A stretch of DNA of 64,000 bases from Escherichia coli (GTDB lineage: Bacteria > Pseudomonadota > Gammaproteobacteria > Enterobacterales > Enterobacteriaceae), in NCBI RefSeq assembly GCF_013315695.1, contig NZ_CP054353.1; one strand, given 5' to 3'. Position numbers and translations under genes: made by a program. Numbering within the stretch: the first letter of the stretch is position 1; the number at the start of each line of letters is the position of its first letter. Below the pieces are notes generated by a model that was not told the DNA's origin, did no database searches, and was given only the letters and a program-made list of their open reading frames with translations. Of the stretch, positions 10,692 to 34,095 are shown in pieces.

Positions 10692-10767
10692 GGCCCTTTA
10701 GCTCAGTGGTGAGAGCGAGCGATTCATAATCGCCAGGTCGCTGGTTCAAATCCAGCAAGGGCCACCA
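10692..10767 (+). tRNA. ileZ: tRNA-Ile2 (anticodon CAU, ileX/ileZ-like)
   Basis: 76 nt cloverleaf GGCCCTT...AAGGGCC-A-CCA; anticodon loop TTCATAA; close to the E. coli ileX sequence. Confidence 0.8.
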
Positions 10768-10774
10768 TCACATA

Positions 10775-10851
10775 CCGCCATTAGCTCATCAGGATAGAGC
10801 GCCAGCCTTCGAAGCTGGTTGCGCGGGGTTCGAGTCCTCGATGGCGGTCCA
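10775..10851 (+). tRNA. argN: tRNA-Arg (anticodon UCG)
   Basis: 77 nt; acceptor CCGCCAT/ATGGCGG; anticodon stem-loop CCAGC-CTTCGAA-GCTGG; T-loop GGTTCGAGTCC; 3' CCA. Confidence 0.8.
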
Positions 10852-10864
10852 TTATCTGTACCCT

Positions 10865-10941
10865 GCGTTATTAGCTCAGCCGGACAGAGCAATTGCCTTC
10901 TAAGCAATCGGTCACTGGTTCGAATCCAGTACAACGCGCCA
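10865..10941 (+). tRNA. argO: tRNA-Arg (anticodon UCU)
   Basis: 77 nt; anticodon loop CCTTCTAAG; T-loop GGTTCGAATCC; 3' GCCA; one acceptor-stem mismatch. Confidence 0.8.
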
Positions 10942-10952
10942 GACTTATTTTT

Positions 10953-10980
10953 CCCGGCTCGCTTTTGCGGGCTTTTTTTT
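10953..10980 (+). terminator. Terminator-like hairpin plus T8 after the tRNA cluster
   Basis: GCTCGC-TTTT-GCGGGC followed by TTTTTTTT. Confidence 0.45.
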
Positions 10981-11433
10981 AAATGTCTCACAATTCAGAC
11001 GGTTGACAGTTGTCTGTTTTGCGGGGAGTTTGTTAAAAGAAACTGGCATGGTGAATCCCCCTGTGCGGAGGGGCAATCAGCAACTGGTGTTTTGTCACCG
11101 ACCCTTATCCTTTCTGTGCGGGTTCAGGTGCTGATACTGAACTCACCGGGAGGCACCCGGCATCATGTGCATGATGATACAGATACGCGGCTTTAGCCCC
11201 TCTCCGGAGGGGCTTTCTTGTGGGCAAAAAAAAGCCCGAGTGGGTTCGGGCAACAGCATGAGATATACATTTTTATAATCGAATGGATTTTAACCAGAAT
11301 TCATAAGGCTGCGCAACTGCGCGGTCTTTTTCGAATTGCGGGCTGTCGTCTCTCTTCTGCCATTGTCCTGTAACTTCCGGACTTCAGCCCGCTCCTTATT
11401 TTACTCACAATATTATCCCGGCCGGGAGGATTC

Positions 11434-13395
11434 ATGGCATTTAAACACTATGACGTGGTCAGGGCGGCATCGCCGTCAGACCTTGCGAAACGACTGACAC
11501 AAAAACTGAAGGAGGGGTGGCAGCCATTTGGCAGTCCGGTGGCCATCACGCCTTATACCCTGATGCAGGCCATTGCGGCGGAAGGTGATGTCACCACACC
11601 TGTGGTGGTGAAGCCGTCGGATGGAGAAGGCGCAGTTATCAGCAACACCAGCAACCCGGAGTATTACTTTGTTGTTGCCCTGGCCGGGCAGTCAAACGGT
11701 ATGGCGTATGGTGAAGGGCTTCCGCTGCCGGAGACATATGACCGTCCGGACCCGCGTATTAAACAGCTGGCGCGTCGCAGCACTGTCACGCCGGGTGGTG
11801 CGTCCTGTAACTACAATGACATTATTCCTGCGGACCACTGCCTGCATGATGTTCAGGATTTGAGTAAGTTTTCACACCCGAAAGCCAGCGCAGCTCAGTA
11901 TGGATGCGTGGGGCAGGGATTACATATCGCGAAGAAATTGTTGCCGTTTATTCCGGCGAATGCCGGTATTCTTCTGGTTCCGTGCTGCCGTGGTGGTTCT
12001 GCATTTTTGGCGGGCGATGAAGGTACCTTCAGCGAATCCACCGGCGCAAGCGAGACCTCGGCACGCTGGGGTGTAGATAAGCCACTGTACAAGGACCTGC
12101 TTACCCGTACTCAGGCCGCACTGAAGGCCAACCCTAAAAATATTCTGCTTGCAGTGGTCTGGATGCAGGGCGAGTTTGATTTGAAACAGGGTGCATACGC
12201 CACTCAGCCGGGGCTGTTTGATTCCATGGTGGAAAAATATCGTTCTGACCTGTCGGAATTCGGAGGTCAGTGTCTCGGGGGCTCTCCGTCATCAGTTCCC
12301 TGGATTTGTGGCGACACGACCTACTACTGGAAGCAGACTTATTCTTCGCAATACGATGCGGTGTATGGTGCATATAAGACGAAATCCGCAAAAAAAATCT
12401 TCTTTGTGCCGTTTATGACGGATGAAAACGGGCGAAATGTGGGTACCAACGAGCCGTCAGAAGATCCGGATGTTGCGGATATTGGGTATTACGGAGCCGG
12501 TGGTCGAACGGACGCCAAAACCTGGACGACGGCTGACCGTAAAACGCATTTTGGATCATGGGCACGTCGTGGGATTATTTCCGACCGTCTGGCAACGGCG
12601 ATTCTTGTGCATGCCGGGAGAACCGCTGAATTCATTACCGGAAAACAGCCTGATACGGTGAAGCCCACCGGACCTTCCGGTGAAGGTACGGAGAGAGAGC
12701 CGGAAGGTCCGGTCAGTAACCGAACCCTGATGAGTCTGCTGGCGTCCGGCGAAGACCTGGCATCACAGGGCTGGCGCTATTATCACAAACCGGCGAGCGG
12801 AGACAATGTTAACAAAAACATTGCTGAAGCGGTGGTCAGTGATGCGGGGGCTACGGGAGGTAAGGCCCTGCAACTGAATAAACCGGAAAACCACATCTGG
12901 TTTCTGGAGCATGATGCAGCCGGGCAGGGGGCAGAGTTGCTGAAGAAAGGAGGACGTGTGAGCGTACGGTTTAAGTTGCCGGGTTCACTGGTGCCGAATC
13001 AGTTTGCCCTGGGCATTTACTGGCAGTTGTCGTCCCTGCCGGAGGGAGTGACGCTGGCAGAGGAAGGCAACGACATGCTGATGTCCTTCTTTCTGCAGAC
13101 GGATGCGACGAACCTGAACGCGATGCACCACAAGAAGCCGAATGCGAAGCTGGAAACGTTCGGGGTCTTTGATAACGGATGGCACACACTGGCTTTTGAG
13201 TTTGCCGGAAACAACAGCATTCAGGTGACGCCGGTACTGGATGAGAAACGGGGGACGCCGTTCACACTGGTGAAATCTCCGGCATCAGGGGCGGCGGACA
13301 AACTGCAACTGACAGGCATATCAAAGGCGGCGACATATACGCTGCTGATTGACAGTGTGAAGGTGGAAGTGAACAACGCGGATGCCGCGGCATGA
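11434..13395 (+). CDS. nanS: Prophage 9-O-acetyl-sialate esterase NanS-p (DUF1737 plus SASA/SGNH esterase)
   Basis: 653 aa; N-terminus MAFKHYDVVRAASPSDLAKRL (DUF1737); esterase motif YYFVVALAGQSNGMAYGE; sits where Stx phages carry nanS-p downstream of stx. Confidence 0.85.
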   Translation: MAFKHYDVVRAASPSDLAKRLTQKLKEGWQPFGSPVAITPYTLMQAIAAEGDVTTPVVVKPSDGEGAVISNTSNPEYYFVVALAGQSNGMAYGEGLPLPETYDRPDPRIKQLARRSTVTPGGASCNYNDIIPADHCLHDVQDLSKFSHPKASAAQYGCVGQGLHIAKKLLPFIPANAGILLVPCCRGGSAFLAGDEGTFSESTGASETSARWGVDKPLYKDLLTRTQAALKANPKNILLAVVWMQGEFDLKQGAYATQPGLFDSMVEKYRSDLSEFGGQCLGGSPSSVPWICGDTTYYWKQTYSSQYDAVYGAYKTKSAKKIFFVPFMTDENGRNVGTNEPSEDPDVADIGYYGAGGRTDAKTWTTADRKTHFGSWARRGIISDRLATAILVHAGRTAEFITGKQPDTVKPTGPSGEGTEREPEGPVSNRTLMSLLASGEDLASQGWRYYHKPASGDNVNKNIAEAVVSDAGATGGKALQLNKPENHIWFLEHDAAGQGAELLKKGGRVSVRFKLPGSLVPNQFALGIYWQLSSLPEGVTLAEEGNDMLMSFFLQTDATNLNAMHHKKPNAKLETFGVFDNGWHTLAFEFAGNNSIQVTPVLDEKRGTPFTLVKSPASGAADKLQLTGISKAATYTLLIDSVKVEVNNADAAA

Positions 13396-27222: not shown

Positions 27223-27969
27223 ATGGCAACACCAAATCCCCTGGAGCCGGTAAAAGGTGCCGGTACCACTCTGTGGGTTTACAACGGCAAGGCTGATGCT
27301 TATGCAAACCCGTTGTCAGACGATGACTGGCAGCGACTGGCTAAGGTGAAGGATCTGACGCCGGGCGAGATGACGGCTGAATCCTACGATGATAACTACC
27401 TGGATGATGAAGACGCGGACTGGAGCGCGACCGGGCAGGGGCAGAAATCTGCAGGTGATACCAGTTTTACGCTGGCCTGGAAACCGGGAGAGGAAGGTCA
27501 GAAAGGGCTTATAGGCTGGTTTGAAAGCGGCGATGTCCGGGCCTATAAAATCCGTTTTCCGAATGGCACGGTGGATGTGTTTCGTGGCTGGGTCAGCAGT
27601 ATCGGTAAGGCCGTGACGGCGAAAGAAGTGATCACCCGCACGGTGAAAGTCACTAACGTGGGTAAACCTTCTGTAGCGGAAGAACGCAGCAAAATTACGC
27701 CGGTCACTGCGATTAAGGTAACGCCGACAGGTACGGTTGAAAAAGGGAAAACAACCACCCTGACCGTTACTGTGGAACCGGAAAATGCAACGGATAAGAC
27801 ATTCAGGGCGATTTCCGCCGATCCATCAAAAGCCACCATTAGCGTGAAAGATATGACGATTACTGTGACGGGGGTTAAGGATGGAAAAGTCAGCATCCCT
27901 GTGATTTCCGGTAATGGTCAGTTTGCTGCGGTGGCTGAAATTACCGTTAATAATGTGCCGGGTGGCTAA
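27223..27969 (+). CDS. V: Major tail protein gpV (with C-terminal Ig-like domain)
   Basis: 248 aa; lambda V-like N-terminus; C-terminal Big_2-like [14 protein letters not shown]...[13 protein letters not shown]. Confidence 0.85.
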
Positions 27970-27987: not shown

Positions 27988-28419
27988 ATGTTCCTGAAAA
28001 CAGAACAATTTGAATATAACGGTGTATCCGTCACGCTTTCTGAGCTGTCTGCGCTGCAGCGTATTGAGCATCTTGCCCTCCTGAAACGGCGGGCAGAAGA
28101 GGCTGAAGCCAGCGGCAACCTGCAGGTGAGTGTGGAAGATCTTGTCAGAACCGGCGCGTTTCTGGTGGCGATGTCCCTGTGGCATAACCATCCACAGAAA
28201 ACGCAGTCACCGTCAATGAATGAGGCCGTGATGAAGATAGAGCAGGAAGTGCTCACCACCTGGCCTGCCGATGCCATTGCCCGGGCGGAAGACGTGGTGT
28301 TGTGCCTGTCCGGGATGATCGAAGCTGTTCGTCCGGATACTGATATTACTGAAGTGGCGAAAAATAACACGCTGACTGATGATGATTTTTCTGCGGGAAA
28401 GTCTTCGACGGCGAGCTGA
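27988..28419 (+). CDS. G: Tail assembly chaperone gpG
   Basis: 143 aa; MFLKTEQFEYNGVSVTLSELSALQRIEHLALLKRRAEE parallels lambda G; slippery site near the 3' end. Confidence 0.8.
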   Translation: MFLKTEQFEYNGVSVTLSELSALQRIEHLALLKRRAEEAEASGNLQVSVEDLVRTGAFLVAMSLWHNHPQKTQSPSMNEAVMKIEQEVLTTWPADAIARAEDVVLCLSGMIEAVRPDTDITEVAKNNTLTDDDFSAGKSSTAS

Positions 28420-28859
28420 ACTTTGCCCTCAGACTGGCGCGTGAGATGGGGAGACCCGACTGGCGCGCCATGCTTGCCGGGATGACATCCACCGAATATG
28501 CCGACTGGCACCGTTTTTACCGCACGCATTATTTTCAGGATACCCAGCTGGATATGCATTTTTCCGGGCTGACGTACGCTGTACTCAGCCTGTTTTTTTG
28601 CGATCCGGATATGCATCCCTCTGATTTCAGTCTGCTTGTCCCCCGGCATGAGGAAGAGCAGGTGGAGAGGCCGGATGAGGACAAAATGCTGATGCAGAAA
28701 GCGGCAGGACTTGCCGGAGGCGTCCGGTTCGGTGGGGACGGAGGGCGCGATATTTTATCGTCTGCGGATGTGGCGGATGTCATGGTGGATGATGCCGCAT
28801 TAATGATGGCTTCAGCGGGGATTCCGGGAGGTGTGAGATATGTCCCAGCCGGTTGGTGA
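27988..28859 (+). CDS. T: gpGT fusion made by -1 programmed ribosomal frameshift at GGGAAAG (28395-28401)
   Basis: Heptamer G GGA AAG sits 6 codons before the G stop; the -1 frame continues ...GKVFDGELNFALRLAREMGRPDWRAM... into the T ORF (28446..28859). Confidence 0.7.
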
Positions 28860-31401
28860 TCTTGTTATTGACCTTAGTCTGGATGCTGTCCGTTTCGATG
28901 AGCAGATGAGCCGGGTAAGGCGTCATTTTTCAGGTCTGGATACCGACGCCAGAAAAACCGCCAGTGCTGTTGAACAGGGCCTGAGCCGCCAGGCGCTGGC
29001 TGCACAAAAAGCAGGGATTTCCGTCGGGCAGTATAAAGCGGCCATGCGAACCCTGCCCGCACAGTTTACGGATATCGCCACGCAGCTTGCCGGTGGTCAG
29101 AATCCCTGGCTGATCCTGCTGCAACAGGGCGGTCAGGTGAAGGACTCCTTCGGCGGGATGATCCCCATGTTCAGGGGGCTTGCCGGTGCGATCACCCTGC
29201 CGATGGTCGGGGTCACCTCGCTGGCGGTGGCGACAGGTGCGCTGGTGTACGCCTGGTACCAGGGAGATTCCACGCTTTCAGCGTTTAATAAAACCCTGGT
29301 TCTTTCCGGTAATCAGTCCGGACTGACTGCCGATCGCATGCTGACGCTCTCCAGAGCCGGACAGGCCGCAGGGCTGACGTTTAACCAGGCGAGTGAGTCA
29401 CTGGCAGCCATGGTGAATGCCGGTGTGCGTGGTGGTGAACAGTTTGATGCCATCAACCAGAGTGTCGCGCGTTTTGCGTCTGCATCCGGTGTGGAGGTGG
29501 ACAAGGTTGCAGAGGCTTTCGGAAAACTGACCACTGACCCGACGTCGGGGCTGATTGCGATGGCGAAGCAGTTCCATAACGTGACGGCGGAGCAGATTGC
29601 GTATGTTGCTCAGTTGCAGCGTTCCGGCGATGAAACCGGGGCATTGCAGGCGGCGAACGAGGCCGCAACGAAAGGGTTTGATGACCAGACCCGCCGCCTG
29701 AAAGAGAACATGGGCACGCTGGAGACCTGGGCAGACAGGACAGCGCGGGCATTCAAATCCATGTGGGATGCGGTGCTGGATATTGGTCGTCCTGATACCG
29801 CGCAGGAGATGCTGATTAAGGCAGAGGCTGCGTTTAAGAAAGCAGACGACATCTGGAATCTGCGCAAGGATGATTATTTTGTTAACGATGAAGCGCGGGC
29901 GCGTTACTGGGATGATCGTGAAAAGGCCCGTCTTGCGCTTGAAGCCGCCCGAAAGAAGGCTGAGCAGCAGACTCAACAGGACAAAAATGCGCAGCAGCAG
30001 AGCGATACCGAAGCGTCACGGCTGAAATATACCGAAGAGGCGCAGAAGGCTTACGAACGGCTGCAGACGCCGCTGGAGAAATATACCGCCCGTCAGGAAG
30101 AACTGAACAAGGCACTGAAAGACGGGAAAATCCTGCAGGCGGATTACAACACGCTGATGGCGGCGGCGAAAAAGGATTATGAAGCGACGCTGAAAAAGCC
30201 GAAACAGTCCGGCGTGAAGGTGTCTGCGGGCGATCGTCAGGAAGACAGTGCTCATGCTGCCCTGCTGACGCTTCAGGCAGAACTCCGGACGCTGGAGAAG
30301 CATGCCGGAGCAAATGAGAAAATCAGCCAGCAGCGCCGGGATTTGTGGAAGGCGGAGAGTCAGTTCGCGGTACTGGAGGAGGCGGCGCAACGTCGCCAGC
30401 TGTCTGCACAGGAGAAATCCCTGCTGGCGCATAAAGATGAGACGCTGGAGTACAAACGCCAGCTGGCTGCACTTGGCGACAAGGTTACGTATCAGGAGCG
30501 CCTGAACGCGCTGGCGCAGCAGGCGGATAAATTCGCACAGCAGCAACGGGCAAAACGGGCCGCCATTGATGCGAAAAGCCGGGGGCTGACTGACCGGCAG
30601 GCAGAACGGGAAGCCACGGAACAGCGCCTGAAGGAACAGTATGGCGATAATCCGCTGGCGCTGAATAACGTCATGTCAGAGCAGAAAAAGACCTGGGCGG
30701 CTGAAGACCTGCTTCGCGGGAACTGGATGGCAGGCCTCAGGTCCGGCTGGAGTGAGTGGGAAGAGAGTGCCACGGACAGTATGTCGCAGGTAAAAAGTGC
30801 TGCCACGCAGACCTTTGACGGTATTGCACAGAATATGGCAGCGATGCTGACCGGCAGCGAACAGAACTGGCGTGGTTTCACCCGTTCTGTGCTGTCCATG
30901 CTGACAGAGATTTTTCTGAAGCAGGCGATGGTGGGGATAGTCGGGAGTATCGGCAGCGCCATTGGCGGTGCTTTCGGTGGTGGTGCGTCTGCCTCCACGG
31001 GGACGGCCATTCAGGCTGCGGCGGCGAACTTCCATTTCGCGACCGGGGGATTTACGGGGACGGGGGGTAAATATGAACCTGCGGGGATTGTTCATCGCGG
31101 GGAGTTTGTCTTCACGAAGGAGGCGACCAGCCGGATTGGTGTCGGCAATCTGTACCGCCTGATGCGGGGCTATGCGGAAGGTGGTTATGTCGGCGGTGCC
31201 GGAAGTCCGGCGCAGATGCGGCGGGCGGAAGGCATTAATTTTAATCAGAACAATCACGTGGTGATTCAGAACGACGGCCCCAACGGGCGGGCAGGGCCGC
31301 AGCTGATGAAAGCGGTGTATGAGATGGCCCGCAAGGGGGCACAGGATGAACTCCGGCTGCAGTTGCGTGATGGCGGTATGTTATCAGGGAGCGGTGGATG
31401 A
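28840..31401 (+). CDS. H: Tail tape measure protein gpH
   Basis: 853 aa, same length as lambda H; coiled-coil rich; position between G/T and M. Confidence 0.9.
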   Translation: MSQPVGDLVIDLSLDAVRFDEQMSRVRRHFSGLDTDARKTASAVEQGLSRQALAAQKAGISVGQYKAAMRTLPAQFTDIATQLAGGQNPWLILLQQGGQVKDSFGGMIPMFRGLAGAITLPMVGVTSLAVATGALVYAWYQGDSTLSAFNKTLVLSGNQSGLTADRMLTLSRAGQAAGLTFNQASESLAAMVNAGVRGGEQFDAINQSVARFASASGVEVDKVAEAFGKLTTDPTSGLIAMAKQFHNVTAEQIAYVAQLQRSGDETGALQAANEAATKGFDDQTRRLKENMGTLETWADRTARAFKSMWDAVLDIGRPDTAQEMLIKAEAAFKKADDIWNLRKDDYFVNDEARARYWDDREKARLALEAARKKAEQQTQQDKNAQQQSDTEASRLKYTEEAQKAYERLQTPLEKYTARQEELNKALKDGKILQADYNTLMAAAKKDYEATLKKPKQSGVKVSAGDRQEDSAHAALLTLQAELRTLEKHAGANEKISQQRRDLWKAESQFAVLEEAAQRRQLSAQEKSLLAHKDETLEYKRQLAALGDKVTYQERLNALAQQADKFAQQQRAKRAAIDAKSRGLTDRQAEREATEQRLKEQYGDNPLALNNVMSEQKKTWAAEDLLRGNWMAGLRSGWSEWEESATDSMSQVKSAATQTFDGIAQNMAAMLTGSEQNWRGFTRSVLSMLTEIFLKQAMVGIVGSIGSAIGGAFGGGASASTGTAIQAAAANFHFATGGFTGTGGKYEPAGIVHRGEFVFTKEATSRIGVGNLYRLMRGYAEGGYVGGAGSPAQMRRAEGINFNQNNHVVIQNDGPNGRAGPQLMKAVYEMARKGAQDELRLQLRDGGMLSGSGG

Positions 31402-33752: not shown

Positions 33753-33961
33753 AAAGAATAAAAAAATCCCGCAGTGATCGCGGACAGGAACTGCGGGAGA
33801 GTTACGAAGATTAAGTGTAAGGAATTATTCTTATATCACGACAAAAAAATTAACGCAGAGAAATTATACGCGCCACAGTCAGTTTGTGAAAATGTGAAGA
33901 TATTCAGAATTTTTATGCCATTACCGGTTTTAACCAACAGGATTATCGGTGGGCATGAAAG

Positions 33962-33993
33962 AAAACCCCGGTATCTGCTGATACCGGGGTTTC
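33962..33993. terminator. Strong bidirectional hairpin in the I-J spacer
   Basis: AAAACCCCGGTATC-TGCT-GATACCGGGGTTTC (10-13 bp stem), T-rich downstream and A-rich upstream. Confidence 0.5.
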
Positions 33994-34095
33994 TCTTTAG
34001 CATGGCAGAAATGTGTTTCATGCTTTTCGGGCGAAGGATATCCGACTTCTGTACGGAATGGCAAGTGGCGGTTAATTTATTCAGGGGAAGGCTGT

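Follow-up and report, generated by a model that had tools for sequence, protein, structure and literature searches.

The X XXY YYZ phasing of a slippery heptamer is the arrangement required for a tandem -1 slip, and E. coli dnaX, whose heptamer is A AAA AAG, adds an SD-like element on the 5' side and a stem-loop on the 3' side, with a shift rate of about 50%. The closest described system to the locus presented here is the G/G-T frameshift of phage lambda (Levin, Hendrix and Casjens 1993; Xu, Hendrix and Duda 2004, 2013, 2014, cited in PMC5009743 and PMC3296357), in which the heptamer GGGAAAG encodes Gly-Lys in both frames and about 96% of translation stays in the 0 frame (PMC3296357). The lambda gpG to gpGT ratio of about 30:1 is critical for tail assembly, with the G portions binding the tape measure protein and the T domain recruiting the tail tube protein, and neither G nor GT ends in the virion (PMC5009743). 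The sequence G_GGA_AAG is highly shift-prone in E. coli because one tRNA-Lys (mnm5s2UUU) decodes both AAA and AAG, and A_AAG is the minimal -1 shift motif in this host (PMC5009743). The lambda shift depends on the mnm5s2U of tRNA-Lys (PMC7618472), and hypomodification of this tRNA increases shifting and reduces the yield of lambda (PMC5009743, PMC3296357, PMC7618472).

Here we analyze a window of 64,000 nt, a chromosomal segment of E. coli (RefSeq assembly GCF_013315695.1, contig NZ_CP054353.1) that holds a complete-looking lambdoid prophage adjoining btsS-btsR-yeh. The first-pass annotation of this DNA had proposed that its tail chaperones G and T are joined by a frameshift of the lambda gpG/gpGT type, and the protein families, the gene order and the homologous heptamer all agree with that proposal. 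We consider the heptamer at 28395-28401 to be very probably a functional lambda-type -1 programmed frameshift site that makes GT in this prophage. This reading is favored because of the geometry of the site, the families of the two proteins, the homology of the site to that of lambda, its conservation across the whole family, and the selection that the T frame shows beginning at the slip site. The mechanism itself is already known and is textbook recoding, and the allele is common in E. coli.

Organization of the G/T Cassette

The tail module of the prophage has the same order as in lambda, Z-U-V-G-T-H-M-L-K-I, with a strong Pfam match for each gene. G and T are flanked by the tail tube gene V, whose product here comprises a tail tube and an Ig-like domain, and by the tape measure gene H. 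The features of the cassette are as follows.

27223..27969, plus strand: major tail tube gene, lambda V homolog (PF16461 Phage_TTP_12, E 1.1e-68, plus Big_2); 5' border of the G/T cassette
27988..28419, plus strand: G ORF, tail assembly chaperone G, the 143-aa product of the 0 frame (PF06894, E 3.5e-51)
28386..28419, plus strand: 34-nt stretch in which the 0 and -1 frames are both open (the -1 stop ends at 28385; G stop at 28417-28419)
28395..28401, plus strand: slippery heptamer G GGA AAG, putative -1 tandem tRNA slip site, Gly-Lys in either frame, identical to lambda at the homologous codon
28401..28445, plus strand: 15 T-frame codons, VFDGELNFALRLARE, preceding the ATG; a conserved peptide with coding periodicity, inside which position 1 of TIGR01715 aligns
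28410..28478, plus strand: predicted RNA structure (z = -3.6), with an outer stem that begins 8 nt past the heptamer around a GC-rich hairpin at about 28435-28470
28446..28859, plus strand: "T" ORF of 137 aa in the calls of ORF finders and PGAP, very probably the C-terminal portion of GT in practice (PF06223, E 3.8e-14)
28840..31401, plus strand: tape measure gene, lambda H homolog (PF06791, E 3.9e-69; PF09718, E 7.5e-21); 3' border of the cassette

The start of H lies inside the end of T, giving a T/H overlap of 20 nt. The match of G to PF06894 reaches 172.7 bits against a cutoff of 27, and a scan of the GT fusion against NCBIfam returned both the G equivalog TIGR01674 (163.2 bits, cutoff 74.45) and the T equivalog TIGR01715 (209.1 bits, cutoff 77.35). 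The first of these models spans fusion residues 1-138, of which the last is the slip-site Lys, and the second starts at fusion residue 143, with the ATG-encoded Met following 11 residues later. A search of the PDB gave no sequence-detectable relative for either G or GT.

The 872-bp G-T segment occurs with 100% identity in many E. coli chromosomes, and 3,647 of 5,426 complete genomes contain a detectable related segment. The contig JAIJJM010000220.1, binned in a "Collinsella sp." MAG, is also 100% identical to the E. coli prophage G/T region, a match that is probably due to mis-binning or contamination, and the "Planctomycetaceae" MAG contig JALWSL010000651.1 gave a weak T-like match with 34% identity. 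The record MW057783.1, "Campylobacter phage CJLB-4", has a score equal to that of phage lambda at near-identical coordinates, which suggests that it consists of lambda-like DNA.

Geometry of the Slip Site and Comparison with Lambda

GGGAAAG occupies positions 28395-28401 and is phased G GGA AAG in the frame of G (start ATG at 27988, stop TGA at 28417-28419), with base 28395 as the third base of a codon. Five sense codons (S-S-T-A-S) lie between AAG and the G stop, which makes AAG the sixth codon back, so that the first-pass annotation was correct in placing an in-phase heptamer six codons before the end of G. In the -1 frame a TGA ends at 28385, and the frame is then open to the stop at 28857-28859. 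Because the -1 frame is open only from 28386 and G stops at 28419, a slip that produces the fusion is restricted to the 34 nt from 28386 to 28419, which include the heptamer. A -1 slip at the heptamer would be read as ...GKVFDGELNFALRLAREMGRPDWRAM..., an exact match to the peptide that had been proposed, and in full as ...SAGK VFDGELNFALRLAREMGRPDWRAM...; the T ORF at 28446..28859 is present, and its continuity with the -1 frame, likewise part of the original claim, is exact. The resulting GT fusion, join(27988..28401,28401..28859), would have a length of 290 aa.

As a bare string the heptamer is not significantly enriched in the window, where 12 copies are found on the two strands vs. 8.33 +/- 2.82 expected in shuffles, and we therefore see its significance in where it sits, how it is phased and how well it is conserved. 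Of the 12, a single copy has the required geometry, with an upstream 0-frame ORF of 137 codons, a stop 5 codons on, and a -1 frame that stays open for 152 codons. Among the 3,930 codons of 11 neighboring phage head and tail genes, X XXY YYZ heptamers occur in phase 12 times, and the pattern N_NNA_AAG occurs in phase once, at the slip site only.

Much of the cassette is shared with lambda G/T, whose slip site we take from Table 1 of PMC3296357. G GGA AAG is identical in the two, falls at the same aligned codon and stands 15 nt before the G stop in both, in line with the comparison to lambda drawn in the first-pass annotation. The V-G-T-H order and the families (PF06894/TIGR01674 and PF06223/TIGR01715) are shared, the G-T segment is 76% identical at the nucleotide level, G is 76% identical to gpG over 114 aa, and the post-slip peptide is near-identical (VFDGELNFALRLAREMGRPDWRAM here vs. 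VFDGELSFALKLAREMGRPDWRAM in lambda). The differences lie in the C-terminal linker of G on the 5' side of the slip site, which has diverged (NTLTDDDFSAGK vs. DAGPAEPVSAGK), in the protein lengths calculated from coordinates (143 vs. 140 aa for G and 290 vs. 279 aa for GT), in the stretch where both frames are open (34 nt here and 64 nt in lambda), in the T/H overlap, which is 8 nt in lambda, and in the host element, here a chromosomal prophage beside btsSR. Nucleotide identity between the window and lambda steps up abruptly at the site, from 47% over the preceding 45 nt, where the variable C-terminal linker of G is encoded, to 87% over the 45 nt that follow. From the slip site to the ATG, 5 codons are changed between the two, of which 3 are synonymous in the T frame and none in the 0 frame.

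Conservation of the Slip Site across Relatives

A search of viral contigs with the G protein returned 80 loci that were all 98-100% identical and hence useless for assessing conservation, and two other collections were used instead. The phage set consists of the window and 17 phage loci (n = 18) forming a graded series from 92% down to 33% G identity, and the 46 loci of the genome set come from species-representative genomes of the Enterobacterales, which span Escherichia as well as Proteus, Providencia, Morganella, Pantoea, Serratia and Erwinia. A shift-prone heptamer is found at the homologous codon in all 64 loci (18/18 in the phage set and 46/46 in the genome set), with an A_AAG core that is nearly invariant, while the stretch upstream of the slip site is unconserved among the relatives. 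The heptamers are distributed over the distinct sequences as follows.

GGAAAAG: 40 of 55 distinct sequences
GGGAAAG: 6 of 55
AAAAAAG: 3 of 55
GGTAAAG: 3 of 55
AGAAAAG: 2 of 55
GGGAAAA: 1 of 55

These six variants share one codon across the Enterobacterales, and most of them are imperfect forms of X XXY YYZ. Lineages may in this way set different G:GT ratios, or they may rely mainly on a single-tRNA slip at A_AAG.

The records of N15, phi80 and LLS annotate the homologous position as a -1 slippery sequence. The gp14/gp15 proteins of N15, G/G-T of phi80, and their counterparts in Gifsy-1 and phage LLS are homologous to the G/T proteins of the window and have a slip site at the homologous codon. 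They differ in that this site is G GAA AAG, an imperfect X XXY YYZ because the P-site Glu codon re-pairs imperfectly, in that Phe stands at the position of the ATG-encoded Met of the window, and in that their T proteins are without the C-terminal extension of about 35 aa that is found in the T of the window and of lambda. This extension (28746-28856), which is also present in Stx1 phages, ends in a second motif, GGVRY, which seems to duplicate the GGVRFG motif that precedes it by about 40 residues; T proteins of the N15, phi80 and Gifsy-1 type stop after the first GGVRFG motif.

In Candidatus Symbiopectobacterium endolongispinus truncation leaves a G-frame ORF of 65 aa, and GGTAAAG stands in place of the GGGAAAG of a sister genome. 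Both features fit a prophage that is decaying in its insect symbiont host.

Predicted RNA Structure Downstream of the Slip Site

A frameshift that is real but helped by downstream RNA structure, as in stimulated signals of the dnaX or IS3 type, has to be weighed against slippage at the heptamer unaided, and on balance we think such help unlikely. The structure in question pairs 28410-28416 with 28472-28478 in an outer stem that encloses an inner hairpin at 28435-28470, and the 99 nt past the heptamer fold at -41.4 kcal/mol (z = -3.6, a value reached in 0 of 200 shuffles). On 15 sequences of the lambda/N15/phi80 type the structure appears convincing, as it is 95.8% paired, compared to 20-48% in slid registers, one of its pairs is seen as G-C, A-U and C-G (0 of 500 shuffles), and the stem given by RNAalifold begins 8 nt after the heptamer, which is the canonical spacing. 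The picture changes once the comparison is extended to 55 distinct sequences, on which 79% of cells are paired and several pairs are broken in 16-21 of the sequences. Pairs changed on both sides then number 6 vs. 6.4 in shuffles, with 427 of 500 shuffles reaching 6, the number of further pair types is equalled in 82 of 500 shuffles, and RNAalifold drops the stem (-1.39 kcal/mol). Synonymous differences between the window and lambda, counted over codons for the same amino acid, are also no rarer in the stem (5/24) than in the rest of T (10/46) or in G (25/87). A family-wide stimulatory stem, though supported on the 15 close relatives, is thus rejected on the 55 sequences and by the synonymous-site test, and the predicted structure is probably a by-product of the highly conserved coding sequence for LAREMGRPDWRAML.

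Direct reading of ACGCTGACTGATGATGATTTTTCTGC (28370-28394), upstream of the heptamer, gave no GGAGG-like motif as an SD-like element. The G/T site would share with dnaX a -1 tandem slip in which the one tRNA-Lys of E. coli (mnm5s2UUU) decodes A_AAG in the A site (PMC5009743), and it differs from dnaX in having no upstream SD-like sequence, in a predicted downstream stem that is not conserved across the 55 sequences, and in an expected slip rate of a few percent.

A narrower form of the idea applies to the lambda/N15/phi80 subfamily, this prophage included, in which the two-helix RNA at 28410-28478, 8 nt past the heptamer, may tune the G:GT ratio; we put it forward tentatively, as a possibility that seems to us rather doubtful. 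If it were true, the lambda G-T frameshift would not be wholly stimulator-free, contrary to the prevailing view, and the more distant relatives in Proteus, Providencia, Pantoea and Kosakonia would do without the structure or use other means.

Translation of the T Frame

In the RefSeq reading T is an independent gene that starts at its own ATG (28446), with the heptamer being incidental. The in-frame ATG does open an ORF of 137 aa, which PGAP names "phage tail assembly protein T" and which is catalogued on at least 1000 contigs, and the Pfam match to the T domain begins past the ATG; on the other hand, the curated TIGR01715 model starts 11 residues ahead of the Met, and the homologous product of lambda is the GT fusion (PMC3296357, PMC5009743). 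Direct reading shows no in-frame ATG, GTG or TTG ahead of the 15 codons at issue, those between the slip site and the ATG (28401-28445), and they are thus reachable only by a frameshift from G.

These codons are conserved as protein and carry the periodicity of coding sequence, which speaks against an independent T. The T-frame consensus from the slip site is.la.El.Fvl.LAREFgRpDWR.MLagM, and over the first 33 codons the T frame is free of stops in all 55 distinct sequences, each of which has a stop in the 0 frame. Nucleotide diversity at the three T-frame codon positions is 0.29/0.26/0.50 from the slip site to the ATG, and 0.25/0.16/0.53 after the ATG, in the same 55 sequences, so that the pattern on the two sides of the ATG is closely similar. 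The ATG codon is itself poorly conserved, as the codon at 28446 is TTC or TTT (Phe) in 47 of the 55 and ATG in 7, with Phe or Leu in 48.

Ribosome binding points in the same direction, with no SD at functional spacing before the T ATG and an anti-SD ΔG of -2.3 kcal/mol, compared to -11.6 kcal/mol for H, -5.9 kcal/mol for U and V, -3.0 kcal/mol for G and +0.7 kcal/mol for K. The T value is the second-weakest, and since K and G are poor as well the anti-SD score is a weak discriminator, so the conservation of the ATG codon carries the argument. The first-pass annotation had named an efficient T start of its own, together with no frame continuity from G, as what would speak against joining; the locus has exact continuity, no usable SD and an ATG codon that is mostly Phe among relatives.

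Start codons, conservation and periodicity, the ATG codon, ribosome binding and the NCBIfam boundaries together lead us to reject a stand-alone T, which we regard as very improbable. They support a T frame that is probably translated from the slip site in preference to the ATG at 28446.

Formation of the fusion elsewhere in the 34-nt overlap, by a single-tRNA slip on U_UUU at 28386-28389 or by RNA polymerase slippage, is barely tenable: GAT TTT TCT does give a T_TTT that would allow a tRNA-Phe in the P site to re-pair in the open -1 frame, but relatives do not keep the T-run (CCT GTT TCT in lambda, unrelated sequence in the N15 and phi80 types), the runs present (T5, G3, A3) are much shorter than the homopolymer runs with which transcriptional slippage is associated, and the element that is conserved across all loci is the N_NNA_AAG heptamer. 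The distinction between ribosomal and transcriptional slippage is discussed in PMC5009743.

Proposed Mechanism

For the tandem slip at G GGA AAG that we favor, the sequence of events would be that of lambda. Most ribosomes would read G from 27988 to 28419 and stop, producing the 143-aa chaperone, and a small fraction would pause with tRNA-Gly on GGA and tRNA-Lys on AAG. In this fraction the paired tRNAs would move back by one base and re-pair with GGG and AAA, and translation would resume in the -1 frame, from 28401 to 28859, to give the 290-aa GT. By analogy with lambda, the G part would then bind the tape measure protein (encoded at 28840-31401), the T part would recruit the tail tube protein (encoded at 27223-27969), and a low fixed G:GT ratio, set by the slip rate, would enable tail assembly. 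The slip event, its rate (about 4% in lambda) and the functions of the proteins are all carried over from lambda in this description, and it should be read as a model built on that phage.

Other Features of the Window

Tail genes I and J, which abut in lambda, are separated in this prophage by a spacer of 344 nt (33753-34095) that is AT-rich and unannotated in RefSeq. On its minus strand lies a near-consensus sigma-70 promoter (TTCACA-16-TATAAT, 11/12, 33890->33863) directed towards an intrinsic terminator (stem 33784->33768 followed by a T-run), an arrangement which suggests a candidate small RNA of about 90-100 nt (fold z = -2.3). The spacer also contains a second perfect hairpin at about 33958-33995, gave no match in Rfam, and recurs with about 91% conservation in lambdoid phages of EHEC (PPompW, Stx phages, ASU11).

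A cluster in the style of Stx phages occupies 10692-11281, with tRNA-Met, tRNA-Arg(tcg), tRNA-Arg(tct) and the sRNA STnc100 (131.7 bits). The same cluster holds, on the minus strand, AsxR ("anti-stx2 sRNA"), whose score is exactly at the gathering score. No stx ORFs are present between this cluster and the gene for a 653-aa esterase (11434-13395), and the prophage would appear to be related to Stx-converting phages but stx-less.

The early region of the prophage has two tandem copies, about 860 nt apart, of a pair formed by isrK, an Hfq-binding sRNA, and a C4 antisense RNA (1724-1909 and 2587-2775). In the chromosomal flank outside the prophage, the minus strand at 52220-52295 gave a strong match (98.9 bits) to OrzO-P, the antitoxin RNA in a type I toxin-antitoxin system.

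Annotation and Implications

RefSeq/PGAP annotates T as a separate CDS with no slippage join, and many phage records do likewise. The start given for T differs among the records, being for example 1432, 1450, 1483, 1492 or 1549 in different loci. Automated annotation consistently miscalls T, using an internal start that is not conserved. A collection of about 15 billion proteins lacks the exact 290-aa GT fusion, while G and the 137-aa "T" are each found in it on at least 1000 contigs; this absence is expected since gene callers do not model slippage. As long as T is called as a stand-alone gene, the GT product is missing and the first 15 T-frame residues are never represented.

What is new in the present analysis is practical only, namely that the fusion is missing from protein catalogues, that T is miscalled, and that no solved structure for G or GT can be found by sequence. 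The GT fusion is the form to use when the integrity of prophage tail modules is judged, in proteomics searches, and for defence systems that sense tail chaperones. For the prophage and its host, a slip site of this type would make tail assembly depend on the modification state of the host tRNA-Lys (PMC3296357).
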